Of a stretch of 44,525 nucleotides of DNA, positions 26,453-44,096 are shown in pieces. The position numbers and the translations under genes were made by a program. Source of the DNA: a virus; IMG/VR virus record IMGVR_UViG_3300048074_000119, one strand, 5' to 3'. Every line of letters starts with the position of its first letter. Position 1 is the stretch's first letter. Under the pieces are notes generated by a model that was not told the origin of the DNA, did not search any database, and saw only the letters and a list, made by a program, of their open reading frames with translations.

Positions 26453-27025
26453 TCACTCCTCGGAAGTCAGGAAGGGGCGGGCCTTGTCGGGATCCTCGAC
26501 GTAGATCGCCGAGTACCAGTGGGTGCAGGCCTCACTGTAGAGGCCAACGGAGGTCAGCGCACGTTGGAGGGCTGCCGCGCGTTGGCTCGAGAACTTGTCC
26601 TCGGGCTCGAAGAAGGAGCGGAGGTTGCCGCCGTCGTAGACGACGATGAGCAGGGAGGTGCCCCCGTACTGCTCGCCCCGCTCGCGCCAGCGCTTGGGCG
26701 AGTAGAAGCTGGTGCAGCCGCCCGTCCAGAACTTGGAGACGGGATCCGTGTGGGAGGCCATCTGCTCGATGATGGTGCGCCAGGCGAGCTTGCCGAGCGG
26801 ATCGAGGTCGGTGGGCATCGCGCTGGTGGTCTCGGCCATGTCGCGCACGAGCGACAGGTGGCGCTTCAGGACGCCCCACTCGCGATCGTTCTCGTCGAGC
26901 ATCTCGCGGAGGCTCTTGACGGTGGTGTTCATCTCCTCCGCGACGTCGGCCAGCAGGCCGCTGCCGCGCGGCAACGAGGCGCGCAGCGTGGAGACGAACC
27001 GGACCAGATCCTTGCGCGCGTTCAT
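26453..27025 (-). CDS. Hypothetical protein
   Basis: MNARKDLVRF..., ATGA overlap. Confidence 0.65.
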   Translation of the reverse strand: MNARKDLVRFVSTLRASLPRGSGLLADVAEEMNTTVKSLREMLDENDREWGVLKRHLSLVRDMAETTSAMPTDLDPLGKLAWRTIIEQMASHTDPVSKFWTGGCTSFYSPKRWRERGEQYGGTSLLIVVYDGGNLRSFFEPEDKFSSQRAAALQRALTSVGLYSEACTHWYSAIYVEDPDKARPFLTSEE

Positions 27026-27441
27026 GACCGACCCCCGAGGCGGAAGGTGGGGTGCGTGTCGAACGCTTCGCCGAGGGGCGACGACGTGGAGAACGTGAGC
27101 CCGAGCGGCCACGGATCGTCCACGGCGAACGTGACCTTGACCGCGGTCCGCGGCTGGGCCTCGTCGCCGAGGAGTGCAAAAGCGTCTTGGACGCACTGGG
27201 CCTTCAGCGTCTCGATGCGCTTGGCGCGCCGGTCGCTGGCCCACGACCGCTGGCCCACGACGAGGTCGGCCAACGTCTGGCCGTTGCGGTGGATCCGCAT
27301 GATGATCTCGGCGACCTGCTGGGCCTGTTCGGCGGCGAGGAAGTCGGCCCGAGCTTCGGGACCAGTCTCGGCCTTGGTGCGGATTCGGGCGACGTAGGCG
27401 GCGAGCGTCGACATGGCGACGCACTGGGCTGCGCTGGGCAT
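27022..27441 (-). CDS. Hypothetical protein
   Basis: MPSAAQCVAM... behind CGCAGAAAGG. Confidence 0.65.
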   Translation of the reverse strand: MPSAAQCVAMSTLAAYVARIRTKAETGPEARADFLAAEQAQQVAEIIMRIHRNGQTLADLVVGQRSWASDRRAKRIETLKAQCVQDAFALLGDEAQPRTAVKVTFAVDDPWPLGLTFSTSSPLGEAFDTHPTFRLGGRS

Positions 27442-27491
27442 GATGTGGCCTTTCTGCGGGGTACGGCCCGCGTCCGATGTGGCAGGAAGTG

Positions 27492-27725
27492 TCAGGAGTT
27501 GAGGAACGCGCGAACCGCCGTGAGGGTGGGGCTGATCCCGCAGGCCTTGGCGGCGCGCTTCATGGCGGGGCCGGTGCTGGCGTTGCCCTTGGCGTACGCA
27601 GGGATCATCTTGGCGACGACCTGCGGCACGCCGTCCACCGTGTAGGCGTAGTCGTCGGGCTTGGTGGTGACGTAGTGGGTCAGCGCCTCGGTGTAGGCGG
27701 CGGCGAATCGTTCGGTGTTGGTCAT
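27492..27725 (-). CDS. Small hypothetical protein
   Basis: 77-aa ORF, GAGGA SD. Confidence 0.7.
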   Translation of the reverse strand: MTNTERFAAAYTEALTHYVTTKPDDYAYTVDGVPQVVAKMIPAYAKGNASTGPAMKRAAKACGISPTLTAVRAFLNS

Positions 27726-27740
27726 GTGGACGGGATCCTC

Positions 27741-28268
27741 TCAGGGTTTGACGAACTCGCGTTCCGCCACCGTCAGCGTGGCCCACCCGGGGCGCAGGTG
27801 ACGGTCGTCGCCGAGCAGGACCGTCTGGCCACACCCGGAGACCACGTACTGCTCGCCGCGCCGCGCCTGGACTTCGGCGGCGTTCTTGCGGATGCGCTCG
27901 ACGAGGTCGGCCCGGATGTCAGGCTCCTCCTCCAGCTTGAGCGTGGCGAAGCTCAGGAACGCGAGGTGCTTGTAGTCGCCGTTCACCTCGACGGTGCGAT
28001 CGGCGTACCCAAGGCCAGTGCTGAACACGCCGATGAACAGCGGGTCGACCTCCGGCTCGGGCTCGGCCGGGCGGGACTGCCAGCTGATGGTCTGCCCTTC
28101 CGAGAGCCGCTTGGTCTCGGCGCGCGTGAGCTTGCGGCACGGTGTGCCCCCGGCCTTGCGCTTCGCGCTGCACTTCGTGCAGTACACGAAGCCCTTGTTG
28201 TCGATGTGCGTCACGGCGCCCTTGCAGGTCTTCTCCATGTCGCACTGGAGCTTGTCGGTGGTGATCAC
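27741..28268 (-). CDS. Hypothetical protein with N-terminal Cys motif
   Basis: GTG start; CDMEKTC...THIDNKGFVYCTKC. Confidence 0.65.
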   Translation of the reverse strand: MITTDKLQCDMEKTCKGAVTHIDNKGFVYCTKCSAKRKAGGTPCRKLTRAETKRLSEGQTISWQSRPAEPEPEVDPLFIGVFSTGLGYADRTVEVNGDYKHLAFLSFATLKLEEEPDIRADLVERIRKNAAEVQARRGEQYVVSGCGQTVLLGDDRHLRPGWATLTVAEREFVKP

Positions 28269-28807
28269 GGGATGTCCTCCACGTCTTCCAGTTCGAGCTG
28301 CGCCGCCGTCTCGGCCCGCGCGATCTCTTCGTTGTCGAAGCGGACCGCGGCCTCGCGCGCTTCGGCGCAGCCGGACGAGCAGAAGCGCTCGTCCTCCAAG
28401 TCCTGCATCATGTAGCTCTCGACGGGGAGCAGCTCGCCGCACTGGTCACACTTCGGCATGCCGTCGCGGATCTTCTGGGCCCGCTCGAGCGCGTTCTCTT
28501 CGGTGACGTCCGGGAAGGGACAGGTGGCCCCGGCCGTGAAGCCGAAGCCGAGCTCGATCGGTTCGTCCGGGTCACCCCCGGCCTTGCGGAGCGAGACCCA
28601 CGCCTTGCGCACCGCGATGGCGGCCTCGACGGCCTCCACGGGATCGCGGAAGGTGCGGCCCTCCCCAAGCGCCTTGAGAGCGCGGTGTGGCGTGAGTTCC
28701 CCGGGGTTGGAGTAGTTGGGCCCGCCTTGGGCGACCTCGACGGAGAGCGTGCCTTCCGGCCAGGCGCGCTGGCGGGAGACGTAGAACTGCATGATGTCCT
28801 TGCTCAT
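28265..28807 (-). CDS. Hypothetical protein with C-terminal zinc finger
   Basis: CDQCG...FCSSGC. Confidence 0.65.
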   Translation of the reverse strand: MSKDIMQFYVSRQRAWPEGTLSVEVAQGGPNYSNPGELTPHRALKALGEGRTFRDPVEAVEAAIAVRKAWVSLRKAGGDPDEPIELGFGFTAGATCPFPDVTEENALERAQKIRDGMPKCDQCGELLPVESYMMQDLEDERFCSSGCAEAREAAVRFDNEEIARAETAAQLELEDVEDIP

Positions 28808-28815
28808 GGTGGACC

Positions 28816-29025
28816 TCACGTGTGGATGTAGCCGTCGTCCTCGACGCCGACATACATCCCGTGCCGGTAGAAGAACCAGTTGCAGTTCAGGGTGTCGTAC
28901 TTGAGGTCCGCGAGGATCGCCTCGGCATCGTCGGGGTACGCCTTGCGGATCGCGGCCTTGATGGCCTCGTTGGGGATCAGCGGACTACCGGCCTTGATGG
29001 CCTCGACAAGCTGTGCGTGTTGCAT
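28816..29025 (-). CDS. Small hypothetical protein
   Basis: 69-aa ORF behind leader copy A. Confidence 0.7.
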   Translation of the reverse strand: MQHAQLVEAIKAGSPLIPNEAIKAAIRKAYPDDAEAILADLKYDTLNCNWFFYRHGMYVGVEDDGYIHT

Positions 29026-29036
29026 GGGAACCGTTG

Positions 29037-29157
29037 CCTTTCTGCGGGTGTTGACCGCGCCGAAGCACCCGACGCCGCCCGGGGGGGGGGATGGAACGAC
29101 GTCGAGTGCTTCGGTGCGGTGGCGAGCGGGAAGAACACCATGAGCAGACCGCTCGCC
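29037..29157 (-). repeat. Structured leader element, copy A
   Basis: Hairpin 1 + ~24-bp hairpin 2 (loop with GTTCC and C10) + CGCAGAAAGG. Confidence 0.8.
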
Positions 29158-29193
29158 CCGAGACCGTAAGCACCTCCTTTCAGCGTGTTGGAA

Positions 29194-29514
29194 TCACGAC
29201 TCCGTGTAGTCGTCGACCAGCCGACCGCGTGGCATCCCTTCGGTGTCGACGCGCAGTTCAGCCTTCTCGATGTGTCCAGATCCGCAGGCCGCGTCGAAGA
29301 ACACGCGCGCCCCGTCGAGGCTCGCAAAGCCCAGTTCGACCGTGCCGACCGATCCGCGGGCCACGTCGTAAGGCGTTCCGAGGTAGGGCAGATACCAGAC
29401 CATCGCCTTGGCGGTCTTGCAGTCGACCGCGTTCTCGGCGCCCGGCGGCAGGACCTGTTCGGTCCGTGCACCTGGACCGACGACGCGGGCGACGAAGGTG
29501 CGGCGGCCCATCAT
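29194..29514 (-). CDS. Hypothetical protein
   Basis: MMGRRTFVARV..., TGATG coupling. Confidence 0.55.
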   Translation of the reverse strand: MMGRRTFVARVVGPGARTEQVLPPGAENAVDCKTAKAMVWYLPYLGTPYDVARGSVGTVELGFASLDGARVFFDAACGSGHIEKAELRVDTEGMPRGRLVDDYTES

Positions 29515-29828
29515 CACTCGGCCGCCTGGTCGACGGGCTGGTTCGCCCTGACCACGGACCCGAGAAGGTCGAAGAGCCCGGCCAGCGCGTGCCCGGCCTT
29601 GACCGCGTCCATGAGTTCGGACCAATGGTCGTCGACGTCGCCCGTGCGGGCGAGGAACGCGAGCTGGTGGACGATGAGCCGCACCGCGGGATCCTTGGCG
29701 GGCTGGACGCCCTCGTCGCGGGCGGCGTTGGCCGCGCTCACGAGCGCATGGGCGATGCCGCTGATGTTGCAGGCACCGCCTTGGATGCCCTCGGCGGCGT
29801 AGAAACGACTGCGGGTGAACTGGATCAT
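29514..29828 (-). CDS. Hypothetical protein
   Basis: MIQFTRSRF...GACNISGIAH...DPAVRLIVHQLAFL. Confidence 0.7.
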   Translation of the reverse strand: MIQFTRSRFYAAEGIQGGACNISGIAHALVSAANAARDEGVQPAKDPAVRLIVHQLAFLARTGDVDDHWSELMDAVKAGHALAGLFDLLGSVVRANQPVDQAAE

Positions 29829-29836
29829 GATCGTGG

Positions 29837-29944
29837 CCTTTCTGCGGGATGGGCCCGCGACGAAGCACGCGACCCCGCTACCCCGGGGGGGTGTGGGGAA
29901 CAGACGGTCGCGTGCTTCGTCGCGAGGGCGACCCAAGGTCGCCC
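29837..29944 (-). repeat. Structured leader element, copy B
   Basis: GGGCGACC-ttg-GGTCGCCC + 20-bp stem TCGCGACGAAGCACGCGACC/GGTCGCGTGCTTCGTCGCGG + CGCAGAAAGG. Confidence 0.85.
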
Positions 29945-29951
29945 CCACCGG

Positions 29952-30446
29952 TCAGGCGTCAGTTGCAGCTTGGAGCTGCGCCCCGAGCGCTTGGACGGCC
30001 TCGGCGGCCGACTTCGCAGCCTTCGCGGCCGCCTCCTTCGCGAGCCGCACCTTGACCACCTTGATGATCGTCTGGAGTTCCTGCACCTGCTCCGGGCGGA
30101 GACCCGCCGCGAAGCGCTCGAGGAACAGTTCGGCCTTGTCGAAGTCGTATCCCGAGAGGCCGTGCCAGTGGACGTGGCCCTTCTCGTCCTTGAACATCGC
30201 CCCGAAGGGGTTGTACGTCGAGGCGTGGGGCTTGTTCCAGAACTCGCCCTCGCGCTTCGGATTCGTGGTCTGCGAGACGAACCGAGTCCCCTTGCGGGGG
30301 TGGACGTCCAGCCAGTAGCGGATCTTGCACCGGAGCGAGCGCCCGTACGGGTAGTCCTCCACCAGCAGGGCGGTCTCGGGCGAGTAGTGCCCGGAGAGGA
30401 CTTCGACGACGTTCGCGAATGGATTGGGCTTGTCTCCGATGAACAT
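29952..30446 (-). CDS. Hypothetical protein
   Basis: 164-aa ORF (VEDYPYG..LRC...WNKP..STY) behind CGCAGAAAGG. Confidence 0.75.
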   Translation of the reverse strand: MFIGDKPNPFANVVEVLSGHYSPETALLVEDYPYGRSLRCKIRYWLDVHPRKGTRFVSQTTNPKREGEFWNKPHASTYNPFGAMFKDEKGHVHWHGLSGYDFDKAELFLERFAAGLRPEQVQELQTIIKVVKVRLAKEAAAKAAKSAAEAVQALGAQLQAATDA

Positions 30447-30476
30447 GACGTGGGCCTTTCTGCGGCGGAGCCGCGC

Positions 30477-31184
30477 TCAGAACTGGGGCCGAGCAGGCAA
30501 CGGCGCCTGCTCGATCATGGCGAGCACCTCGGCGGCGCTCGCGGGGGGAACGGGGAGCGCGCCGACCTTCGGGCGCCCGTAGGCACACGACACGGCGGTG
30601 TCGACGTCAGCGAGGCAGCTCGGGTGTCCCGAGCACCGCGCGAGGCCGACGTAGTGCCGATCGCGGTACAGGCCCTCGGCCTTCTGCGTCGCGGCGCGGG
30701 CCGCGTGAACGTTCGTGGCCGCATCCCACTGCCTCCGCGAGAGGGGCGAGGGGTACTTGCGGTCCTCTGGCGGGGTCTCGATCCAGGCGAGGATCTGATC
30801 GCGGAGCTTCATGCGAAACTCCGACTTGAGCTTGGCGCCGAGGAGGGCGCAGGCGGTGGCGCGCTCGACGCTGCCGCCGATCCGCTTCAGGCCGCGCTGC
30901 CACGCCTCGGGCCAGCGGGGGTCGGCCCAGGCCCACACGTACTTCCAGTCCACCACGGAGCCGACCCACTCCTCGGGCTTGAGCCACGAGGGGAGGACGA
31001 CGTCGTGGCGCTCGTACTTGTGGCACTCGACGGGCATGTCGAAGTCGAAGCCCGCGCAGCAGGTCGCCATGACCTTGAGCAGCGGCTCGTCCTCCGCACG
31101 CCAAGGGCGCAGGGGACTCGCGGGCGTGGGGGCGTTCTCCCCGTCCTTCACGAAGAGGAACGGGGTCGCCGTGAACAGAGCCAC
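30477..31184 (-). CDS. Hypothetical protein
   Basis: 235-aa ORF, high GC3. Confidence 0.7.
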   Translation of the reverse strand: MALFTATPFLFVKDGENAPTPASPLRPWRAEDEPLLKVMATCCAGFDFDMPVECHKYERHDVVLPSWLKPEEWVGSVVDWKYVWAWADPRWPEAWQRGLKRIGGSVERATACALLGAKLKSEFRMKLRDQILAWIETPPEDRKYPSPLSRRQWDAATNVHAARAATQKAEGLYRDRHYVGLARCSGHPSCLADVDTAVSCAYGRPKVGALPVPPASAAEVLAMIEQAPLPARPQF

Positions 31185-31194
31185 GGCGACGCCC

Positions 31195-31746
31195 TCAGTG
31201 CCCCGCCGAGCGGTCGACCCGCTCCGCGAAGTAGCGGCCCTTGTTCGCCCGGTCGGGCCAGAACGCGACGATGGGGACGTTGTCGCCCTCGCCCTCGACG
31301 ATGCCGAAGGTCGCGTAGATGGTCTCGCCGCCGACGAGCTTCACCGTCCGGTGCATGAAGGCCGGGGGGAGCATGTCGAGGAACTCGTCGGCGAGCCCCT
31401 CCGTGACCTCCACCCGCTCTCCCTTGTGGACCGCCTCGTAGAACGCCTTACGGTCGCCATCGCCGGTGAACATGGTGGGCCTTTCTGCGGGACTCTCCCC
31501 GCGTGGTTCTGCGTCGGAAGGGGAGCACCCCCACGCCTTGAAGGCCAGACCGTAGTCTGTCCCCTCGGCCTTGAGGATCGTGGCGAGCGTGTTCCAGCAC
31601 GCCGCGTTCACGTCGCCGCCGTCGTCGGTGTCGACGTAGACGTGTTCGGTGCCAGCGCGGGCGATGAGCCCGGCCCGCTGGCATGCATCGGTGATCTGGC
31701 CGACGAGGGTCGGGCCGGTCCACGCGCGGATGCGGAAGCGGGCCAT
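31195..31746 (-). CDS. Hypothetical protein, probably two genes fused in frame (internal start at 31473, DUF1419-like second half)
   Basis: Internal CGCAGAAAGG-N6-ATG at 31473; EVTEGLADEFLDMLPP. Confidence 0.55.
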   Translation of the reverse strand: MARFRIRAWTGPTLVGQITDACQRAGLIARAGTEHVYVDTDDGGDVNAACWNTLATILKAEGTDYGLAFKAWGCSPSDAEPRGESPAERPTMFTGDGDRKAFYEAVHKGERVEVTEGLADEFLDMLPPAFMHRTVKLVGGETIYATFGIVEGEGDNVPIVAFWPDRANKGRYFAERVDRSAGH

Positions 31747-32042
31747 CAGCTGGCCCTCTGCGCGTTCTCGACCTCGGCCTCGCGGCGGGCCGTGGCGACC
31801 GTGACGACCGCGACCGGGGACACCTTGCGGATGTCGACCCAGAGCGATCGTGCGTCACCCAGCGTGTGGCTGTTCCCCGTCGAGAAGTAGACGGCCTGGG
31901 TTTTGAACCAGAGCCGCGTGACCCCGTCCGGGGACGTGGCGTGCGGCACCTTGAGGGGGCCCGAGATGGCCCACCCGGTCGCACGGAGGTGCGCGATCAG
32001 TTCCTCGCGCGCCGTTGCAAACGTCTTCGTCTTCTGCGACAT
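31746..32042 (-). CDS. Hypothetical protein
   Basis: MSQKTKTF... behind leader copy E. Confidence 0.7.
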   Translation of the reverse strand: MSQKTKTFATAREELIAHLRATGWAISGPLKVPHATSPDGVTRLWFKTQAVYFSTGNSHTLGDARSLWVDIRKVSPVAVVTVATARREAEVENAQRAS

Positions 32043-32049
32043 GACGTGT

Positions 32050-32128
32050 CCTTTCTGCGGCGAAGCCGCGCCGAAAGGCCCCACGAGGTGGAACCCTTCG
32101 GTGCGGGGGCGAGCGCTGGGCTCGCCCC
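32050..32128 (-). repeat. Structured leader element, copy E
   Basis: GGGGCGAGC/GCTCGCCCC hairpin + CGCACCGAAGGG/CCTTTCGGCGCG stem + CGCAGAAAGG. Confidence 0.8.
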
Positions 32129-32134
32129 ACCGTG

Positions 32135-32503
32135 TCAGGCAGCCCGAACCGTGGCCGCGAGCGCGACCACGAGCGCGGCCAGCTCGCGTTCATACACGTT
32201 CAGCGTGCGCTGGATGCTCGGCATGATGTGTTCCGAGACGATGAGGCTGCGACAGAGGTTCCCGATCGTGTTCGCGATCAGGTACTGCGTCGACATGTAC
32301 GGGCTGCCGAGGCGCGCCATGTCGGCGGCCCCCGTCAGGTAGGACAGCCTTCGGCAGAGTTCGGCGTCGGGATCGTCTTCGTCATCGCCGATCGGCCGAT
32401 GCACAGCCGACCACTCGACGGGGTCGGAGAACCCGAGGTCGTACCAGTCCGTGCGGAAGCGATCGAGGAAGACTCGGATCACTTCGCGTTCGTCATGCGT
32501 CAT
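32135..32503 (-). CDS. Hypothetical protein
   Basis: MTHDEREVI..., ATGA overlap. Confidence 0.6.
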   Translation of the reverse strand: MTHDEREVIRVFLDRFRTDWYDLGFSDPVEWSAVHRPIGDDEDDPDAELCRRLSYLTGAADMARLGSPYMSTQYLIANTIGNLCRSLIVSEHIMPSIQRTLNVYERELAALVVALAATVRAA

Positions 32504-32901
32504 CGGAAGGCCCTTCCTGCCGCGCTCCGCGCGCGGCGCTTGCCCTTGGGCGCTTCGCGCACCGGGGGCGATGGGGTCGGCTGCGTCGCGTCGTACGCGA
32601 GGGTGGCCGACATGTAGAGGTAGCCGTAGGACCGCCGCGGGCTGTACCGCAGCCGATAGAGGTCGCCCTCGATCGAGTAGGTGTTGCTGTCCGACGGATC
32701 GGGCAGGTTCGCGCGGAGCAGCGGCAGGGCCTTGCTGTTCAGCCAGGCCGCCATGGACTCGCGTTCCGCTTGGGAGGCTTCGCCCTCGACGCCGCTCCGA
32801 TCCCACAGGAGATCGAGCGCACCATCCCGAAGGATGCCGCGCGCCGACCAGTGGAACCGAGGGTCGCCCTCGGGCTCGAGCCCCCAACCCTTGGGAGGCA
32901 T
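32500..32901 (-). CDS. Hypothetical protein
   Basis: 133-aa ORF with SPRRSYGYLY. Confidence 0.65.
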   Translation of the reverse strand: MPPKGWGLEPEGDPRFHWSARGILRDGALDLLWDRSGVEGEASQAERESMAAWLNSKALPLLRANLPDPSDSNTYSIEGDLYRLRYSPRRSYGYLYMSATLAYDATQPTPSPPVREAPKGKRRARSAAGRAFR

Positions 32902-33104
32902 CAGTAGCCCCCGCGCTCGTCACGATCGGCGCAACGGTCGCACTGGTAGCCGCGCGCCTTGTCGGCGGGCGTCAACCGGTTCGGTGCCTTGCACGTGGGG
33001 CACGGCAGGTTCCGGGGGTTGGACTTCGTCGCCGCGCGAAGGGCCGAACGGCCACCGGGGTCCGCGAATTCGAGATCCCCGTCGTCATCGTCATCGTAGT
33101 ACAT
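32901..33104 (-). CDS. Small zinc-ribbon protein
   Basis: CPTC...CDRC; behind leader copy F. Confidence 0.75.
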   Translation of the reverse strand: MYYDDDDDGDLEFADPGGRSALRAATKSNPRNLPCPTCKAPNRLTPADKARGYQCDRCADRDERGGY

Positions 33105-33109
33105 GGCTT

Positions 33110-33202
33110 CCTTTCAGCGAGCCGAATGCCCGCGCCTCGACCCCGGAACCGGATGGTGTCCAGGGTCGAGGTGCGAGGGCGAACAGGGGTCGCCTGTTCG
33201 CC
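33110..33202 (-). repeat. Structured leader element, copy F
   Basis: GGCGAACAGG/CCTGTTCGCC hairpin + CTCGCACCTCGACCC/GGGTCGAGGCGCGGG stem + CGCTGAAAGG. Confidence 0.85.
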
Positions 33203-33275
33203 TCGGAACCATGCGCGGCCGTCAGCCGCGTGTGTCTTCTGCGGTAGAGCATGAGTCCTCCGCTTGGGTGGTCGG

Positions 33276-33434
33276 TCACTCGATCGAATTGAACGCTTCG
33301 CGCAGCTCGCGCCGCGCCTCGTGCCGCTCGCGACGTCGCTGCGCCGCGCCGTGCCAAGCCAGGCACGGATCCTGATGACGCAGCCGAACCGAACGATCGC
33401 GCCGACGGTGGCGCGGCTTCTCACTGTGGAACAT
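33276..33434 (-). CDS. Arg-rich 52-aa peptide
   Basis: Manual translation MFHSEKPRHRRRDRSVRLRH...; behind leader copy G. Confidence 0.5.
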   Translation of the reverse strand: MFHSEKPRHRRRDRSVRLRHQDPCLAWHGAAQRRRERHEARRELREAFNSIE

Positions 33435-33439
33435 GGGTG

Positions 33440-33734
33440 CCTTTCAGCGGAGCAGTGGAGCCCCGCGTGAGACACCCCGAGACGTTGTCGGCGTCCGGCC
33501 GGACCCACCGACGGAGCGACTGGAGAACCGTTCGACGGCGAAGGCTTCCTCAGTTTCCACACGTTGGGCTGCTCGTCCCATCGCCCCATGCCGCGGCACG
33601 GTTTGATTGTTGGGAGTCGCCAAGGCCACGATGGGCATGAGGAAGAGGAAACCCCTTCCGTGTCATGAACGGCGCTCGCTTGCGCCCACTACGTCTCAGG
33701 ATGTCTCACGCGAGGGGGAGCGCGAACGCTCCCC
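33440..33734 (-). ncRNA. Structured leader copy G enclosing a ~205-nt candidate structured RNA
   Basis: 24-bp closing stem (33462-33485/33691-33714) with three G.U pairs on the minus strand; nested internal helices. Confidence 0.6.
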
Positions 33735-33739
33735 ACCCG

Positions 33740-33988
33740 CTACGCCTTGTCGTGCCCAGGGCGGCTCAGGGCGCGATGACGCCGCGCCTCCCGAAGATGG
33801 GCCTGTGCGACCGCGAGGGAGGCGTCGACGAGGCGACTGTACGCCCTCCCGACGAGACCATTCGCCCCGGCCGAGCGGCGCAGGTGACGCCGCGCATCGG
33901 CCAGAAACCGGGCCGCCGTGCGCTCCACGCGCGCCGCGTACCCCACACGGTCGACCTTCCGAAGCGACTTTCGCTGTGCTCGTGCCAT
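33740..33988 (-). CDS. Small basic hypothetical protein
   Basis: 82-aa ORF behind leader copy H. Confidence 0.6.
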   Translation of the reverse strand: MARAQRKSLRKVDRVGYAARVERTAARFLADARRHLRRSAGANGLVGRAYSRLVDASLAVAQAHLREARRHRALSRPGHDKA

Positions 33989-33993
33989 TGTTG

Positions 33994-34089
33994 CCTTTCA
34001 GCGTTGCCCACAACGGGCCCCGCGCCACGACCCCGGAACCGACAGGCGGATCCAGGGTCGAGGTGCGAGGGGGAGCGCGAACGCTCCCC
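33994..34089 (-). repeat. Structured leader element, copy H
   Basis: GGGGAGCG-TTCG-CGCTCCCC + long stem + CGCTGAAAGG; ~70 bp nearly identical to copy J. Confidence 0.9.
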
Positions 34090-34093
34090 ACTC

Positions 34094-34435
34094 CTACGTG
34101 GACTGCTCGATTTCCGTCAGGAAGGGCAATGCCCACCCCGGAATTGCCCGCGCGGTGTAGAACGCATCGGCTTCGACGCGCTTGCCCTCGCGGAAACACT
34201 TGGAGACTTCGTTCGGGGTGCTCTCGTCATACACGGCGACGTCGAGTTGCCCGTTCGACATGACTCGCACCGAGATACACCCCGGCGTGTTGGGTCGGCC
34301 GATGACGGCCAACGTGGCGCTTTCGGCGCGTAGACGCCACCCCCGCCCCAAAGGGTCGGTTTCGCGCGTGTGCCCCCCGCCCCATGGGAACGTGCCCTCC
34401 CACGACTGCTTGGCGGAGATCGAAAACTCCATCAT
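34094..34435 (-). CDS. Hypothetical protein
   Basis: 113-aa ORF behind leader copy I. Confidence 0.65.
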   Translation of the reverse strand: MMEFSISAKQSWEGTFPWGGGHTRETDPLGRGWRLRAESATLAVIGRPNTPGCISVRVMSNGQLDVAVYDESTPNEVSKCFREGKRVEADAFYTARAIPGWALPFLTEIEQST

Positions 34436-34440
34436 GGCTG

Positions 34441-34527
34441 CCTTTCAGCGGGCCCACCACGGGCCCCGCGCCACGACCCAGGAACGGATCCAGGGTCGAG
34501 GTGCGAGGGGGAGCGCGAACGCTCCCC
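34441..34527 (-). repeat. Structured leader element, copy I
   Basis: Same architecture with a shortened loop. Confidence 0.9.
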
Positions 34528-34550
34528 GCACGCTTCTAGGTGCATGCAGT

Positions 34551-34654
34551 CCTTTCCGCGGCCCTTCGCATATCTTGGCGAGTCCCGCGCCTCGACCCCG
34601 GAACCGACAGGCGGATCCAGGGTCGAGGTGCGAGGGGGAGCGCGAACGCTCCCC
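34551..34654 (-). repeat. Structured leader element, copy J (no full gene downstream)
   Basis: Same architecture; only ~23 nt separate it from copy I. Confidence 0.9.
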
Positions 34655-34660
34655 GCCACA

Positions 34661-35500
34661 CTACTTGCGACGCAGCCAGCGCTGGCCCGCGCCGAACGAA
34701 TCGTCGCGCGCCTTGCCTTCCAAGTTGGCAGGCCGGTTCGGGGCGAGAACCACCCCGCCGCGCCGTTGCATCATGTCGGCGCCCGGGCGCAGCTTGCCGA
34801 ATTGCTCGCCATGTTCGTTCGACCATGCGAGGTTCGCGGCATTCGCATCCAGCGCCGCTTGCGCGACGTTGTGGCGCACCGACTGATACATGATCTCGAC
34901 GTCCCGAAGCGAGCCGCCACGTTCCATCCGAAGCCGCGCCCGAAGCGCGGTGTCGGGGTCGTGTTCCGCCATGAATTTGAACATGGCGTCGAGACTCACC
35001 CCGACCGCTTCGCGCTCCGGCTTCGGCTCCTCGCCGATCGGGAGCATGGTCGTGTGATAGACCGGTCGCGACTGAACGCTTCCGACGGATGCGCACGTCT
35101 GACCGACGAGAGCCCCGGGCCTGTAGGCCGACGCGCTACCGCGCCGACAGACGCCCAGTTGCTGAACGGACACCGCGTAGGCGAGCCGTTCGAGCGGTGT
35201 CGCGCCGTGGCCGAGGAGACGGATCCCGCAACGCGAGCCGCCCCGCCGACACCCGACGCGGACCGTGGTCCGCACGTAGACTTGCCGCATGACGCCGCCC
35301 GGTTTCACCTCGCGATCGGTCGCTTCCGCGACGACCGGGGTCACCGTGGCCACGACCGCGACCGGGACAGGCGGAGGTTTGACCTCGACCTTCGGCGCCT
35401 TGGGCGCCTTGCGCTTGACCGGTTCGACCGGCGGGGGCGCCACGACGATGCTGGGCATCGAAGCCGCGGCCCCTTGCACAATTCTGCGCATGGTTCGCAT
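34661..35500 (-). CDS. Hypothetical protein (first gene of the leftward block)
   Basis: 279-aa ORF behind leader copy K; Pro/Lys-rich N-terminus. Confidence 0.65.
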   Translation of the reverse strand: MRTMRRIVQGAAASMPSIVVAPPPVEPVKRKAPKAPKVEVKPPPVPVAVVATVTPVVAEATDREVKPGGVMRQVYVRTTVRVGCRRGGSRCGIRLLGHGATPLERLAYAVSVQQLGVCRRGSASAYRPGALVGQTCASVGSVQSRPVYHTTMLPIGEEPKPEREAVGVSLDAMFKFMAEHDPDTALRARLRMERGGSLRDVEIMYQSVRHNVAQAALDANAANLAWSNEHGEQFGKLRPGADMMQRRGGVVLAPNRPANLEGKARDDSFGAGQRWLRRK

Positions 35501-35505
35501 GGTTT

Positions 35506-35601
35506 CCTTTCGCGGTACCCGCTATGGGTCTCGCACCAAAACCCCGGTACTGCGCTTGCAGTCCAGGGCTTTGGCACGAGGGCGAATCTTGCGATTCGCC
35601 C
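35506..35601 (-). repeat. Structured leader element, copy K
   Basis: GGGCGAATC-GCAA-GATTCGCCC + 18-bp stem with four G.U pairs + CGCGAAAGG. Confidence 0.8.
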
Positions 35602-36349
35602 CCGCACCGATCGAGGCTCACAACCTCGACAGGCCGGGGCACGTTACCGTGCAGACATGGGCCTTTGCTCTCGCGTTACCGCCCCCGTAGGGTTCACATA
35701 CCAGCGACCCGCGACGCTTGCGCATCTAGCAGGCTCGCCGCTGTGATTTTGCGGCACCCGGGGCTCACAACCCCTTTCCAATCGTCAGAGCACGTCACCG
35801 TGCAACATAGACGCTTTCGCGACCGCCTCTTACGAGCGATTGCCTTGCGGCAACCCTTTGCGGTACCCGGCCTGTTCGACCGTTCCCGGACTCCCGCTAG
35901 GCCGGCCAGGGCTCGCAACCCTGACTTCCTAGCGGACCGTGCCTGTAGCGCGCCGACCTTTGGCGTTTCCATGCTGCTAACACAAGCGCTCGTTTCCGAG
36001 GGGCGCGGGTGAAGCATGGCCCGGAACGATTCCGGGTGAAGCGTTGCACACCATATGCAACCGGTCGACGCGACGTGACGTATGTAGCCTGTACGTAGGC
36101 CAGTCGCTATCCGCGTTGCTCGCGTTGTGAGAGGCCGCGGGGTAATCCCGTGGCATCGCGCCGCTTGCTTCGCTTGCGCACCGTAGGACCGGGCCCCTGT
36201 CACGGGGGGCCGAGTCTTCTAGGACGGAACCAAACCGCCCTAGATGTGCCTGTATTGCCGCCGCATTACCCCTATGGCGGGGGGGAGACGCCTAGTCGGA
36301 AACCGACAGTCAACGTCTACCAACTAGCGTTCCGCCGAACCAAACCCTC

Positions 36350-36444
36350 AAAGCAGAGCTTCTAACTCTGCAATGCAAAGCCAAAGCAGAGCTTGACAAA
36401 GCTCTGCCATGACCAAAGCAGAGGTTCTTGCGAAAGCAGAGCTA
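36350..36444. repeat. Cluster of AAAGCAGAG direct/inverted repeats
   Basis: Direct copies at 36350, 36383, 36415 and 36433; inverted CTCTGC at 36366 and 36402. Confidence 0.8.
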
Positions 36445-36596
36445 CTGGTCGGGCGGTTAGGTAGTATGCGCGTTCAGGCACACGCTAGCGGAACGCGAGG
36501 CGTGCGGCAAGTGTCGAATCGTTCGCGCTCGATCGTGCGAGTGTCGCGCGGCGCATCGGCTCGCACGTGGCGCGCGTGGTCGGCTACCATGTTCGC

Positions 36597-37922
36597 ATGC
36601 GTACGTGGCAGAAAGTAGCAATCGGTCTCGGAACCCTCGCCATGATCGGCGTGGCCGTGACGTGGACGAACGATGCGCGCGCGATGGAGATCGGCAAGCT
36701 CCTGCGCACGGGCGGGTACGCGCCCGCGCCCAACGTGCTCACGTACGCGAACGCGGTCGACGTGGTCACGCACGAGAGCGGCAAGCCGTTCGCGATCGAC
36801 TGGTGCTTGCAGGAGCAGGCGGCCGGACGCGCGGTGCTCATCCCCACGAGCATGTACCAGGGCAAGCTCCCGAAGCCCGGCTACCCCTCGAGTCTCATCT
36901 CCGTCCCACCCGAGCGCGTGGGGGAGGCGACCAAGAGCGGCTTGTTCGTGCGGCTGCCCGATGCCTCGGTGAAGGCGGCGACCTCCACGGGGGACGATGG
37001 CGCGGTGTCTGAGCTCACGCCCGAGGAGGCGCGCCTGCTCACGCCCGCGTGGGCGGACACGGACTTCGTGCAGCTCATCGAGGTGTGCAAGGACATCCGG
37101 TGCAAGCCCGAGGACTTGCTGCTCGTCCTCTGCTCGGAGTCGAACCTGCGCCCGGACGCCCGCAACCCCAAGGACATGAAGGTCCAGTGGCCGTTCGCCG
37201 TCGGGCTGAACCAGCTGACGTTCGACGCCCTGGTGATGCTCGGCCGCTTCACGCCCGACCAGCGCGGGGAGTGGCCGCCCGTCGCCCAGCAGATCCTCGA
37301 CACGCCCGTGGGGGCGCAGCTCGAGATGGTGCGCCAGTATTTCAACGCCACGCCGTGGGGCAAGGACGGGCACGAGTGGACCTCGGCCGCCAAGCTCTAC
37401 CAGGCGAACGCGGCCCCCTCGACGCTCTACACCGGGGACGCGATGACCTCGGTCATCTACCCCGAGGGATCGAAGTCGTACGACCTCAACAAGGGCCTGG
37501 ACGTCAACGGCGACGGGCAGGTGACCCTCGGCGACCTCGCGGGCGCGGTGAACTACTACAAGGGCACCCCGCTCTACAAGGCGGCCATCGTGCGCCTCAA
37601 CGAGGCTCGAGCCCGCCTCGGGATGAGCAGCTCGAGCACGAGCGGCGTCTCCTACAACGCCGCGCGCCACGCCAAGGCGCTGGTGTTGCAGCACGCGCAC
37701 CGGATGCCCTGGCTCCGGTCGGTCTCCATCCGGCCGACGGTGGGTGGGCACGCGCTCGCGATTACCACGGCCCCTGGCTACGAGCTGCACCTGCCCGTGG
37801 TCCAAGGCGTGCCGGTCATCGCTGCGGGCGCGCCCGCGCGCGCGTCCGCCCGGCGCGACCCCAGCACGATGTGGGTCCTGATGCGCGACGGTTCGTGTGT
37901 CCCCGTTCCCCTCTCGGAGTAG
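36597..37922 (+). CDS. Membrane-anchored lysozyme-like/lytic transglycosylase protein
   Basis: N-terminal TM; SESNLRPDARN (catalytic ES), AVGLNQL, YDLNKGLDVNGDGQVT. Confidence 0.7.
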   Translation: MRTWQKVAIGLGTLAMIGVAVTWTNDARAMEIGKLLRTGGYAPAPNVLTYANAVDVVTHESGKPFAIDWCLQEQAAGRAVLIPTSMYQGKLPKPGYPSSLISVPPERVGEATKSGLFVRLPDASVKAATSTGDDGAVSELTPEEARLLTPAWADTDFVQLIEVCKDIRCKPEDLLLVLCSESNLRPDARNPKDMKVQWPFAVGLNQLTFDALVMLGRFTPDQRGEWPPVAQQILDTPVGAQLEMVRQYFNATPWGKDGHEWTSAAKLYQANAAPSTLYTGDAMTSVIYPEGSKSYDLNKGLDVNGDGQVTLGDLAGAVNYYKGTPLYKAAIVRLNEARARLGMSSSSTSGVSYNAARHAKALVLQHAHRMPWLRSVSIRPTVGGHALAITTAPGYELHLPVVQGVPVIAAGAPARASARRDPSTMWVLMRDGSCVPVPLSE

Positions 37923-40981: not shown

Positions 40982-41063
40982 CCCGGTGAAGTTCGGCTGG
41001 GACCGATGGGTGGTTGTAACCCACTCGCCGCAGGCTAGTCAGGTTCGATTCCTGGCACCGGGA
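40982..41063 (+). tRNA. tRNA-Tyr(GTA)
   Basis: Cloverleaf; anticodon loop TTGTAAC; long variable arm; GGTTCGATTCC. Confidence 0.8.
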
Positions 41064-41108
41064 CGAAAGGCATCAGATGAAGCGCAAACCAACAAGCCGC
41101 ATCGACGA

Positions 41109-41180
41109 GGAGGCGTAGTGTAGCGGCTGCACAGTGGGCTTTTACCCCATCAGGCGAGAGTTCGAGCCTCTCCGCCTCCA
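41109..41180 (+). tRNA. tRNA-Lys(TTT)
   Basis: Loop CTTTTAC; GGAGGCG/CGCCTCC acceptor. Confidence 0.85.
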
Positions 41181-41188
41181 CGGCACAC

Positions 41189-41261
41189 GGGTCCGAGGTG
41201 TAATGGTCGGCATAGCGAGCTCTTACCTCGACAGGAGGGGGTTCAATTCCCCCCGGACCCA
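41189..41261 (+). tRNA. tRNA-Lys(CTT)
   Basis: Loop CTCTTAC; GGGTCCG/CGGACCC acceptor. Confidence 0.85.
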
Positions 41262-41268
41262 CGATCAT

Positions 41269-41343
41269 TGGGGATTCGCCAAACGGCTAAGGCACCGGTT
41301 TCTGAGTCCGGCACTGGTGGTTCGAGTCCACCATCCCCAACCA
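41269..41343 (+). tRNA. tRNA-Gln(CTG)
   Basis: Loop TTCTGAG; encoded CCA. Confidence 0.9.
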
Positions 41344-41344
41344 C

Positions 41345-41373
41345 TCCCGCAAGGGAACCTGCTCTCTGACAAC
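41345..41373 (+). promoter_or_regulatory. boxB-like hairpin + boxA-like antitermination signal
   Basis: TCCC-GCAA-GGGA then TGCTCTCTGACAAC (rrn boxA approx. TGCTCTTTAACA). Confidence 0.5.
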
Positions 41374-41417
41374 CTGAACTTTCATCCGATCGGCGTTGCA
41401 AGCGCCGCTCGGAAACT

Positions 41418-41494
41418 GTGGCCCTCGCACCTCTGGTGAGTGCAACCGGCTGTTAACCGGTCCAAGCAGGGTTCGATCCCCTGGGGCTACGCCA
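41418..41494 (+). tRNA. tRNA-Asn(GTT)
   Basis: Loop CTGTTAA; G73 + CCA. Confidence 0.85.
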
Positions 41495-41495
41495 C

Positions 41496-41567
41496 GTCCC
41501 CTACGCCTACATGGTGAGGTGCCGCTTTCGTACTGCGGAGAAGCCGGTTCGATTCCGGCAGGGGGCT
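41496..41567 (+). tRNA. tRNA-Thr(CGT)
   Basis: Loop TTCGTAC. Confidence 0.8.
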
Positions 41568-41573
41568 CTACAC

Positions 41574-41645
41574 GGTCCGGAGGCGCAACGGGTTGCGCGC
41601 CTGGTTGAAACCCAGGAGGAGTCGGTTCGAGTCCGACCTGGACCA
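41574..41645 (+). tRNA. tRNA-Phe(GAA)
   Basis: Loop TTGAAAC. Confidence 0.85.
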
Positions 41646-41646
41646 C

Positions 41647-41718
41647 CGGGGTGTCGCACAGCGGTAGTGCTCGTGCTTTGGGTGCACGATGTTGCTGGTT
41701 CGATTCCAGTCACCCCGA
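41647..41718 (+). tRNA. tRNA-Pro(TGG)
   Basis: Loop TTTGGGT; CGGGGTG/CACCCCG acceptor. Confidence 0.85.
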
Positions 41719-41725
41719 CGATCAT

Positions 41726-41802
41726 GGTGGTGTGAGGGAGCAAGAGAACCCGGCCGATTGTGGATCGGTCTTCGACGGGGGCAGTACCCGTACACCACCC
41801 CA
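41726..41802 (+). tRNA. tRNA-His(GTG)
   Basis: G-1:C73; loop TTGTGGA; atypical T-loop GGCAGTA; CCA. Confidence 0.8.
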
Positions 41803-41805
41803 ACT

Positions 41806-41876
41806 GTCCTTGCCGAAGGTCGGCGCTGGCACTCCTAAGGCCAAGCGACGCGGTTCGATTCCGCGCAGGGACGCCA
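41806..41876 (+). tRNA. tRNA-Arg(CCT), short D-arm
   Basis: Loop CTCCTAA; CCA. Confidence 0.7.
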
Positions 41877-41877
41877 T

Positions 41878-41949
41878 GCCTCGTGATGCGACTGGGGTCG
41901 CAGGCCGCCTGTCTCGCGGTTGAGACGGGTTCAATCCCCGTACGAGGCG
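41878..41949 (+). tRNA. tRNA-Asp(GTC)
   Basis: Loop CTGTCTC; G73. Confidence 0.8.
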
Positions 41950-42025
41950 CTGGCTCCCGTGAGCCTCAACACGGGTGGTGCTCCGCCGGATCAGCACCGC
42001 GTGAAATCGCGACACCCCGGCCCAT

Positions 42026-42112
42026 GGAAGATGAATCGCTCAAGGGAGCGAGCCCGGTTGCTAGCCGGTGCGGTGCTTCGGCACTGGGGTTCGAGCCCTC
42101 CGTCTTCCGCCA
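42026..42112 (+). tRNA. tRNA-Ser(GCT)
   Basis: Loop TTGCTAG; long variable arm; G73 + CCA. Confidence 0.85.
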
Positions 42113-42113
42113 C

Positions 42114-42185
42114 ACGGACGAGGCCATGGCGGCCGAGCGGTTTCCAACTCCGCGGGACCAGGTTCGATTCCTGGCGTCCGTGCCA
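42114..42185 (+). tRNA. tRNA-Trp(CCA)
   Basis: Loop TTCCAAC; G73 + CCA. Confidence 0.8.
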
Positions 42186-42274
42186 GCGCATGCCGAGGCT
42201 GCGTGACAGAGCGAGCGGCACCATCAAGGTCGCGAACGTGGGATCGCCAGCACGAGCCGCGCTCTGGTGATGAC

Positions 42275-42348
42275 GGGCTCGTAGCTTGAAGGGCAAGCAC
42301 TTCGCTGGCAGCGAGGAGTCAGGGGTTCGATTCCCCTCGGGTCCACCA
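42275..42348 (+). tRNA. tRNA-Ala(GGC)
   Basis: G3:U70; loop CTGGCAG; CCA. Confidence 0.9.
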
Positions 42349-42353
42349 ACCTT

Positions 42354-42435
42354 GCCGAGGTGGCGGAACGGCAGACGCAGCGAGCTCAAACCTCGCCGCC
42401 CACGTGGCATGCGGGTTCAACTCCCGCTCTCGGCA
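42354..42435 (+). tRNA. tRNA-Leu(CAA)
   Basis: Loop CTCAAAC; variable arm. Confidence 0.9.
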
Positions 42436-42439
42436 CTTC

Positions 42440-42510
42440 GGGGAAGTCGTACAACGGAAGTACCACCGCTTTGCGAGCGGATGATGCCAGTTCGACTCTG
42501 GTCTTCTCCA
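42440..42510 (+). tRNA. tRNA-Ala(TGC)
   Basis: G3:U70; loop TTTGCGA. Confidence 0.8.
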
Positions 42511-42574
42511 CCGCGACTTCGGTGAGCGGCCACGCGCGTTTCGCGCGTCGCTGCCTCATCGCTGTCGCGATCCC

Positions 42575-42645
42575 GGGCTCGTAGCTTGAAGGGCAAGCAC
42601 CTCGTTCGCAATGAGGAGTTGGGGGTTCGATTCCCCTCGGGTCCA
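42575..42645 (+). tRNA. tRNA-Ala(CGC)
   Basis: Near-duplicate of the 42275 copy; loop TTCGCAA. Confidence 0.85.
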
Positions 42646-42721
42646 CCCAGCTGGCGTGACCTCTTCGTTCGCGGGCGCCAACGTGCCGAAGAGCGGAGTG
42701 GTGGCGTCAGCTGGACCACAT

Positions 42722-42793
42722 GCCGGTCAGGTCCCCGTGGGGGGGCGCGTCCTTGGTACGGACGAGGGGCGGGTTCGACTCCCGCGACTGGCT
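42722..42793 (+). tRNA. tRNA-Thr(GGT)
   Basis: Loop TTGGTAC. Confidence 0.8.
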
Positions 42794-42810
42794 CTACCCG
42801 AAAGGGGAAC

Positions 42811-42882
42811 GCGGGTGCGGCGCGATGGTCGCGCGCGGGCCTTCCAAGCCCTGAGGTGCCGGTTCGAGTCCGGTCACTCGCT
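42811..42882 (+). tRNA. tRNA-Gly(TCC)
   Basis: Loop CTTCCAA; U73. Confidence 0.85.
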
Positions 42883-42934
42883 CTGATGTTGACGGTCACT
42901 TGACGGCATGGCCCGCACATGGGTAACTTCGGGC

Positions 42935-43525: not shown

Positions 43526-43599
43526 TGCTCAGTGGCGGGCAACCGGTCTCGAAAACCGGGTCACGGTGAAACGTGGGGGTTCGACTCCTCTACCCTCCG
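43517..43599 (+). tRNA. tRNA-Ser(CGA)
   Basis: Loop CTCGAAA; variable arm; G73. Confidence 0.85.
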
Positions 43600-43603
43600 C
43601 AAT

Positions 43604-43676
43604 GCGTGTGAGGCCGACTGGTGAGGCACTTCCTTGCCAAGGAAGGACAGGACGGGTTCGATTCCCGCCACACGCT
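43604..43676 (+). tRNA. tRNA-Gly(GCC)
   Basis: Loop TTGCCAA; U73. Confidence 0.85.
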
Positions 43677-43678
43677 CG

Positions 43679-44018: not shown

Positions 44019-44022
44019 CAAC

Positions 44023-44095: not shown

Positions 44096-44096
44096 C

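Follow-up and report, generated by a model that had tools for sequence, protein, structure and literature searches.

In large phages, the early regions hold many densely packed small genes without known function; many of these probably serve host takeover or anti-defence, and the expression and exchange of such genes are known for only a few model phages (T7, T4). In T7, RNase III cuts the ~7,000-nt early precursor at five sites (PMC4858673). The ideal helix for RNase III is 22 bp, with cellular substrates often having ~20 bp or less; mismatches in a substrate can lead to single-strand cuts, and 3′ hairpins stabilise the product (PMC3867540). The promoter early stem-loop elements (PeSLs) of T4-type phages have been proposed or shown to mediate gene shuffling (PMC2839356, PMC4122927). 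Cluster K mycobacteriophages carry the start-associated sequence (SAS), the 13-bp GGGATAGGAGCCC, which lies typically 3–7 bp before a start codon and is suspected of a role in translation; about half of the sites have an upstream inverted repeat with a variable spacer (PMC3203893). These extended sites (ESAS) are 17-bp inverted repeats whose departures between the arms do not support RNA pairing, and the authors favoured a DNA-binding protein (PMC3203893). Here we analyse nine intergenic hairpin elements on the minus strand of the viral record IMGVR_UViG_3300048074_000119, a stretch of 44,525 nt (the window, in whose coordinates all positions are given). The element is most likely a phage intercistronic regulatory cassette of an undescribed type that resembles these known phage devices.

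A sequence-only reading of the window had placed nine copies of one element on the minus strand, and all nine were found where it put them (modules A to H and K, Table 1). In the sense direction, a module runs from a stop codon through a GC hairpin (H1), a long hairpin (H2), a small hairpin (H3) and the motif CGCWGAAAGG, which holds the Shine-Dalgarno (SD) sequence, to an ATG. Each module spans the whole gap between the stop codon and the next ATG, and all share the same orientation. H1 has 8–11 bp and is closed by a UUCG loop in B, C, D and E and by a GCAA (GNRA) loop in A; seven modules follow a gene, and in five of these H1 begins 4–7 nt past the stop codon. H2 directly abuts H1 and ends 13–35 nt before the SD, and its arms are separated at the tip by 4 to ~205 nt among the copies. 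The stem length of 12–24 bp given earlier for H2 is corrected to 18–27 bp; the third small hairpin, described as frequent, is the H3 of our layout. The SD motif was likewise borne out in its claimed place 5–11 nt before an ATG, the distance from GAAAGG being 5 nt in six copies and 7, 8 and 11 nt in the other three. The window has 12 occurrences of CGCWGAAAGG where 0.21 would be expected, and 11 of the 12 are on the minus strand. The GAAAGG core of the motif is not specific to the modules, being the usual SD of this genome and common in other phage contigs.

The modules are recognisably related. Copies A, B, C, D and F served to build a covariance model, which recovered H (38 bits), K (36 bits), G (29 bits) and the 5′ half of E (24 bits) and found nothing outside 29,023–35,606 of the window better than E = 0.1. 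Identity drops with distance along the array, from 76–86% among B, C and D to 66% between H and K and 49% between A and K. The near-duplicates among them are B, C, D, F and the H1 of E.

Table 1. Coordinates of the nine modules and of the SD sites that stand alone (window positions; z, folding z score; bits, covariance-model score)
Feature	Span	Strand	H1	H2	H3 or clamp	SD (GAAAGG)	ATG	Other
Module A (first of array)	35498..35602	-	35602-35581 (GGGCGAAUC-GCAA-GAUUCGCCC)	35580-35530	small hairpin ACCC/GGGU	35511-35506	35500	z = -9.1
Module B	34543..34654	-	34654-34635 (UUCG loop)	34634-34584	clamp GCGG...CCGC	34556-34551	34545	
Module C	34433..34527	-	34527-34508	34507-34465	clamp GCGGG...CCCGC	34446-34441	34435 (starts 113-aa gene)	99 bits
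Module D	33986..34089	-	34089-34070	34069-34019	H3 GCCC/GGGC	33999-33994	33988 (starts 82-aa Arg-rich gene)	115.8 bits
Module E	33432..33734	-	33734-33715	arms start 33714, 33462; 23-bp stem, three U.G pairs, no mismatch; closes ~205-nt insert	clamp GCGGGGC/GCUCCGC	33445-33440	33434	
Module F	33102..33202	-	33202-33178	33177-33129	clamp GCGGGC/GCUCGC	33115-33110	33104	z = -6.8
Module G	32040..32128	-	32128-32106	32107-32065	clamp GCGGC-UUC-GCCGC	32055-32050	32042	29.3 bits
Module H	29826..29946	-	~29946-29927	29926-29854; 21 bp perfect, then further distal helix	clamp GCGGG-CCCAU-CCCGC	29842-29837	29828	38.1 bits
Module K	29023..29159	-	29159-29121 (large loop)	29120-29054; 27 bp, A.C at position 6, five G.U	clamp GCGG/CCGC	29042-29037	29025	36 bits
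Clamp + SD alone	31470..31500	-			GCGGGG-AGAG-UCCCGC-A-GAAAGG		31473	in frame inside 183-codon ORF 31195-31746
Clamp + SD alone	30444..30478	-			GCGGC-UCC-GCCGC-A-GAAAGG		30446	precedes 164-aa gene
Clamp + SD alone	27430..27472	-			GCGGG-CCGUAC-CCCGC-A-GAAAGG			
Orphan CGCTGAAAGG(AGG)	29176..29185	-			no clamp		no usable start codon	between stop 29194 and H1 of K

To compare the H2 stems, we used an ungapped register counted from the base, with position 1 at the C of CUCGC, together with an alignment based on the covariance model; the register was anchored at the base because stems of variable length could not be aligned by MAFFT. In the ungapped register, H2 consists of 18–19 bp or longer runs of consecutive pairs in all nine copies. 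Pairing is kept in 93.6% of 171 cells, with changes on both sides at 12 of 19 positions, and none of 1000 column shuffles reached any of four pairing measures, a result that was unchanged with six independent sequences. Sliding the partner strand by 1–3 bases left only 33–50% pairing. The stem base, CUCGC(A)CC/GG(C)GCGGG, has no bulged bases, and conserved pairs lie at both ends (positions 1–5, 8, 15, 18 and 19, of which 3 and 4 are invariant) around a variable middle, where positions 7, 9–14, 16 and 17 each show three or four pair types. At position 6 there is A.C in six copies, G.U in A and G-C in E and H (base-anchored register), and at position 19 A-U in all nine, for which, in our reading, copy A needs a one-base bulge on the 3′ arm. 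The claim that the stems differ strongly and still pair thus stands as to the compensatory changes, but only about six of the H2 sequences are independent: copies B, C, D and F share one common H2 sequence and therefore add little independent evidence. Eight copies fold with z = -4.1 to -9.1, with none of 200 shuffles folding as well, and the energy per nucleotide is -0.52 to -0.63 kcal/mol in the modules compared with -0.38 (s.d. 0.07) in 219 coding control windows.

The non-Watson-Crick positions indicate which strand folds. Most had been described as G.U on the transcribed strand except for a recurring A.C at position 6, and the counts agree, with 29 G.U against 5 A.C, all at position 6; U.U mismatches, which that description had left out, also occur in B, C and D (five in the minimum-energy folds). 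Because G.U far exceeds A.C, the sense strand is taken as the folding strand. The A.C and G.U found at position 6 are equivalent as wobble-type pairs. The modules also fold better on the sense strand, by a mean of ~5 kcal/mol, whereas the 219 coding windows favour the antisense strand by 3.7 (s.d. 7.4), and this strand bias argues against a two-strand cruciform. These data fit a sense strand that folds, which may be RNA or a DNA single strand with the same polarity. RNA is favoured by the UUCG and GCAA loops of H1, by the fixed tie to stop and start codons and by the insert of copy E.

A further pairing, absent from the earlier description and new here, links H2 to the translation start. The end of the H2 3′ arm, GCGG(G/C), can pair with the complementary (G/C)CCGC one base upstream of GAAAGG, forming a hairpin that we call the clamp. 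The clamp is present in seven of the nine modules and at three sites where the SD motif stands without a module (31480, 30455 and 27449); as the sole structure at those three, it explains why CGC is conserved before GAAAGG. These three sites had been listed as the solitary occurrences of the motif and were all found, but there is a fourth, at 29176, which is probably a decayed site. Closure of the H2 base and formation of the clamp differ in energy by -0.8 to +5.7 kcal/mol in the six modules computed. In module G, where the difference is 0.8 kcal/mol, the clamp and the 3′ end of H2 share the GCGG. The wobble or mismatch at position 6 sets a 5-bp H2 base apart from the rest of the stem and, in this folding model, would ease an exchange between base and clamp.

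We favour, at about an even chance, a module that acts at the RNA level in processing, stability and translation and punctuates a polycistronic early transcript. The nine elements would be copies of one RNA module in a long leftward transcript, the start of which is placed in the 0.9-kb non-coding region at 35.6–36.5 kb. That it is a single transcript is inferred from the lack of promoter-like or terminator-like sites: a consensus scan found no sigma-70-like promoter in 27,000–37,000, and no terminator-like site was found inside any module, H1 being followed by CUCGCAC and not by a U-run. H2 would be the target of a double-strand-specific endoribonuclease, for which host RNase III is the obvious candidate; by analogy with T7, we regard cleavage by this particular enzyme as possible and rather less probable. 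H1 would stay on as a 3′ cap guarding the upstream message. Cutting or opening of H2 would let its 3′ end, GCGG(G), re-pair with the (C)CCGC before the SD, and the resulting clamp (H3) would serve as a 5′ cap that leaves (A/U)GAAAGG single-stranded 5–11 nt before the ATG. The polycistronic RNA would so be converted into stable, individually translated messages. The dimensions of H2 are those of a T7-type RNase III site (at least 18–19 bp in every copy and 27 bp in the longest, located between a stop and a start codon), and its tolerance of 4 to ~205 nt at the tip suits a processing stem. An RNA-level role had been proposed in the sequence-only reading; the sense-strand fold, the tie to stop and start codons and the RNase III-like H2 partly uphold it, and the effects on processing and translation that it named stay predictions.

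Copy E would additionally release a structured RNA of ~205 nt. Its insert, within 33,462–33,714, is non-coding, with GC at third codon positions (GC3) of 0.60–0.68 in all six frames compared with 0.8–0.97 in genes, and a coding insert was rejected on these grounds. Folded across its insert, copy E gives z = -6.1. The insert is a candidate stable RNA, to be set free if the stem is cut.

No accessible genome besides this one yielded the full module. A DNA pattern of the whole module matched 8 IMG/VR and 120 GTDB loci, with a single match in each, and we take these as chance hits because none scored with the covariance model (E of 0.76 or worse). The combination of clamp and WGAAAGG is more widespread, occurring in at least 118 IMG/VR contigs. 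Among the matches listed, 68% of 119 distinct clamp-SD sites lie 4–13 nt upstream of a start codon followed by an open frame of at least 40 codons, compared with 19% of random positions and 46% of any GAAAGG in the same loci, and 99 of 132 sites have complementary bases at the free fifth pair of the clamp. The window covariance model gave no hit in the clamp-SD loci. In one of them (L147, 47% GC), a minimal TAG-CGGCACAGCCGC-AGAAAGG, with the stop codon overlapping the clamp, occurs three times at 8,600–9,400, and a fragment resembling a tRNA T-arm (GGTTCGAGTCC) lies just upstream of these motifs at ~8,605–8,640.

An array of such sites was found in IMGVR_UViG_3300018050_001860 (loci L208, L258 and L260; genome G001), a huge-phage fragment of 74.9 kb estimated by CheckV as 19% complete, which has 15 clamp-SD modules on one strand in 11 kb of small genes. 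The order of its parts is a stop codon, a GC hairpin with a U-rich tail, a second hairpin, TTAGRGYGTAA, the clamp, AGAAAGG, 7–11 nt and an ATG. The second hairpin is conserved in sequence, with 7–12 bp (CCCCGCUCC...GGAGCGGGG) and the loop CCCGAAAAC, and one clamp, GCAAC-AUA-GUUGC, is a compensated variant. At L208:481-613 and L208:2663-2802, a CCUUUCC right after the upstream stop codon is predicted to pair, across the whole module, with the GGAAAGG SD at its other end; if a ribosome that terminates there opened the pairing, translation of the two genes would be coupled. As a whole, this sister system looks more like a terminator-plus-promoter cassette.

Several observations weigh against an RNA processing module in the window. 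The excess of G.U pairs marks the folding strand and does not distinguish RNA from single-stranded DNA. With about six independent H2 sequences from one genome, the conserved positions may reflect common descent rather than constraint. The sequence rules of RNase III are weak, so that a fit in dimensions is easily obtained, and no nuclease or RNA-binding protein was identified among the window open reading frames (ORFs) submitted to Pfam and PHROGs. The look-alike array, with its U-tailed first hairpin and conserved block, points to termination plus promotion rather than to processing.

This last point keeps alive a PeSL-like explanation for the window, in which H1, or H1 with H2, is a composite terminator or attenuator that stops or damps transcription after each small gene, and later genes rely on read-through, on an N-like antiterminator acting from the leader or on a hidden phage-specific promoter. 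The modules do occupy the position of PeSLs, from the stop through hairpins and SD to the start of small genes of unknown function (PMC2839356), and the leader upstream of A has three boxB-like hairpins with UUG(U/C)GAG loops while two early genes encode small Arg-rich proteins. We nevertheless consider it unlikely, given that no window copy has a U-tract after H1, which H2 abuts, and that the modules have neither a sigma-70-like promoter nor a TA-rich -10 candidate, with merely 13–35 nt available from H2 to the SD. A tip that varies from 4 to ~205 nt and a compensated middle are also unlike a promoter that is read by sequence; this arm separation makes a promoter spanning H2 implausible, and a sigma-54 or sigma-70 promoter inside H2 was rejected. 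Conservation at both ends of H2 around a variable middle would also be expected of an operator at its base or apex, at which a phage RNA-binding regulator (a translational repressor or activator, or an Arg-rich peptide) co-regulates the array genes. A wobble or mismatch such as that at position 6 is a typical protein-recognition feature, and Arg-rich small proteins are encoded within the array itself. The recurrence of GTTCC reported earlier is real near the H2 apex, with 7 occurrences in 681 nt against 0.9 expected, but it has no fixed register and switches arm between copies, and mimicry of a T-loop by GUUCC was rejected since only two copies fit. H2 moreover lies upstream of the SD and covers neither it nor the AUG, no RNA-binding domain was detected with Pfam or PHROGs, and the conserved positions may be simply inherited, all of which makes such an operator improbable.

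A DNA-level element, as a hairpin promoter or a recombination site, had been put forward as an alternative, and it fits poorly. The sense strand would then fold as single-stranded DNA and act like an integron attC site for gene cassettes or like the N4 or Frpo hairpin promoters. The array looks cassette-like, B and C are adjacent with no gene between them, and H2, like attC, forms an imperfect palindrome whose base is conserved and whose tip varies greatly in length; G.T wobbles stabilise DNA hairpins too, so that the strand bias is compatible with DNA. Integron attC sites, however, have core sites of the consensus RYYYAAC ... GTTRRRY, and we rejected them here because neither these at the stem base nor extrahelical bases are present. 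No recombinase domain was found in 30 window ORFs compared with Pfam, 20 of them also with PHROGs, the ORFs flanking the array included. N4-type promoter hairpins have 5–7 bp and 3-nt loops and form on the template strand, unlike the sense strand favoured here, no promoter consensus was found, and the UUCG and GNRA loops and the fixed link to SD and start codon point to RNA. This makes a DNA-level element very improbable, and least probable of all is a selfish or neutral repeat, MITE- or REP-like, that spread through the spacers and whose role is limited to carrying a working SD. Several near-identical copies (B, C, D and the H1 of E), their restriction to one 6.6-kb region and their apparent confinement to this genome would be in keeping with a repeat, but its borders show no terminal inverted repeats or target-site duplications, and the uniform orientation and exact fit between stop and start are unlike a spreading element. 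The 12 compensated positions and the G.U bias show selection on one strand, and an analogous three-part design exists in an unrelated huge phage. REP sequences are defined by a palindrome flanked by a conserved 5′ GTAG-type tetranucleotide, by a RAYT transposase and by dispersal of the copies in either orientation; REP/BIME was rejected for the modules, which have a single orientation in one region, no GTAG beside the stems and no transposase hit. A CRISPR-like array was also considered and rejected. As the earlier proposal of novelty required, Rfam gave no match: at gathering thresholds it returned only tRNAs window-wide, and none at E <= 1 in 28,800–36,600, so that the known ribozymes, riboswitches and tRNA-like families in that database are excluded.

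Besides a role in the processing of RNA, the modules may, in line with the recombination handle suggested in the sequence-only reading, act secondarily as homology patches for gene shuffling, as PeSLs do; alike, same-facing copies would offer homology for the duplication, loss and exchange of small genes. The traces of shuffling are indirect: the adjacency of B and C, a fused gene pair, the orphan SD at 29176, the greatest likeness between neighbouring modules and a lone shared gene for a 164-aa protein. Modules B and C lie back to back, ~23 nt apart. B is an "empty cassette," its ATG opening no more than a 36-codon frame that runs through C with flat GC3 and codon-position GC. The 183-codon ORF at 31,195–31,746 has two coding halves (GC3 of 0.86 and 0.96) with a clamp-SD read in frame as the linker, and may represent either two fused cassette genes or one gene that has an internal start at 31,473. 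A 182–183-aa form of it is kept at >90% identity on several other contigs.

The array lies at the head of a leftward block of genes. The window has 68% GC, with genes directed leftward from ~35,500 to 600 and rightward from 36,489, and 20 tRNA genes found by ARAGORN only at 40,982–44,171. All nine modules fall within the first 6.6 kb of the leftward block; in its remainder, the genes mostly overlap or abut and have no spacers. Recognisable proteins of the window are a methyltransferase-helicase, a C5 DNA methylase, a ParB-like protein and a ComM/Mg-chelatase-like protein. The sign of the GC skew flips at ~33–36 kb, within the array. In the coding sequence of the leftward operon (1,000–35,400), folding is more stable on the antisense than on the sense strand, by 3.7 kcal/mol per 110 nt, which fits a G-rich plus strand.

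A non-coding region of 0.9 kb (35,606–36,490, described on the minus strand) separates the leftward array from the rightward genes. It holds four direct copies of GCTCTGCTTTG at 36,349–36,442 (0.45 expected) and a terminator-like hairpin at 36,408–36,385. Three hairpins at 35,616, 35,763 and 35,911, spaced by 147 and 148 nt, share the 7-nt loop UUG(U/C)GAG on differing stems; two of the three are preceded by GCACG-GURA-CGUGC hairpins, and the last abuts module A. The region looks like a structured leader with boxB-like protein-binding hairpins.

The array proteins gave no Pfam match above the curated cut-offs, only two weak sub-threshold ones, and no PHROG match, and blastn of the array against phage and plasmid collections gave no nucleotide match. 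The gene at 29952–30446 encodes the 164-aa protein, whose family is widespread in unrelated phages, with ~900 members (E <= 0.001) on phage-like contigs that differ greatly in GC; neither Pfam nor PHROGs has a model for it, and a search of the ESM Atlas gave nothing. Seven viral contigs of 42–66% GC, from an IMG/VR scan seeded with this protein, share only that gene with the window. IMG/VR scans seeded with the 279-aa, 451-aa, ComM-like and 183-aa proteins yielded none, or one weak relative (29% identity over ~150 residues), and tblastn of the ComM-like and 164-aa proteins against phages gave distant matches or none. Protein clusters revealed close relatives on contigs of 105,464, 125,688 and 199,967 bp, the last from ENA, among others. 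The genes after modules D (33,740–33,988) and E (33,276–33,434) encode very Arg-rich proteins of 82 and 52 aa, with stretches such as KPRHRRRDRSVRLRH and AAQRRRERHEARRELRE that are reminiscent of RNA-binding peptides like lambda N; the reality of these genes is uncertain because their GC3 of 0.74–0.78 lies below that of other genes. A 53-codon frame through module F (33,091–33,251), opened by a GGAGGA-type SD and an ATG, is probably not coding, as its codon-position GC is flat (0.65 at all three positions).

The clamp-plus-GAAAGG motif and the 15-module array suggest a more general design, which, in the annotation of phage genomes from metagenomes, could help to identify true gene starts, operon structure and units of mobile genes. 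A bolder and rather doubtful proposal is that large phages carry a portable "expression adaptor" for newly acquired small genes, made of a 3′ cap, a double-stranded cut site and a 5′ clamp with GAAAGG. If this were true, a new gene would be cut from a long early transcript, stabilised and translated; the clamp-SD end would be common to unrelated phages of 41–71% GC; and the stems would also deliver non-coding RNAs, such as the ~205-nt insert of copy E. The repeats would drive the gain, loss and exchange of early and possibly anti-defence genes, as an RNA-level counterpart of integron cassettes. The processing model predicts a cut inside H2, protective end hairpins on both products and a switch between the H2 base and the clamp.

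We have not filed the element under any named family, because it fails the sigma-70 test of PeSLs and lacks both the SAS sequence and the non-pairing arms of ESAS. With T4-type PeSLs it shares the form of a short repeated cassette that runs from the stop of a small unknown gene to the next SD and start, with a stable stem-loop containing G.T pairs, in a plastic region of a large phage genome. PeSLs, however, are defined by a strong sigma-70 promoter with AT-rich sequence upstream, which is missing from 27,000–37,000 of the window, and the window element has three hairpins, one of them long and covarying; for it, shuffling is proposed. As with the SAS and ESAS of Cluster K mycobacteriophages, a block containing the SD stands shortly before the ATG of non-structural genes in one orientation (PMC3203893). 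The window block is CGCWGAAAGG at 5–11 nt rather than GGGATAGGAGCCC, and unlike in ESAS its pairing is kept by compensatory changes.

The sister array of IMGVR_UViG_3300018050_001860 is alike in the order of its parts and in the clamp, with GCGGC closed by a 3-nt loop in both arrays and GCGGG by a loop of 5 nt there and 5–6 nt in the window. It differs in its U-tailed first hairpin and in a short, sequence-conserved second one followed by an 11-nt spacer; the two have no proteins in common, and the window model gives no hit there. Integron attC sites also are imperfect palindromes between promoterless small genes, with a conserved stem base and a variable tip, whereas the window element has no core sites, extrahelical bases or nearby integrase and is tied to the downstream SD and start. 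The T7 RNase III sites (R0.3–R1.3, with R1.1 the model substrate) are likewise intergenic hairpins in an early region of ~7 kb, with a double-stranded stem of about two turns broken by a non-Watson-Crick position, and are alike in the expected outcome of stable mono- or dicistronic messages with hairpin ends (PMC4858673, PMC3867540). Cleavage in the window is only predicted, and there are nine sites in 6.6 kb compared with the five of T7. Unlike those of T7, the window sites are flanked by two more hairpins and fused to a conserved SD block, are recognisably homologous to one another and in one case enclose a structured RNA of ~205 nt within the stem.

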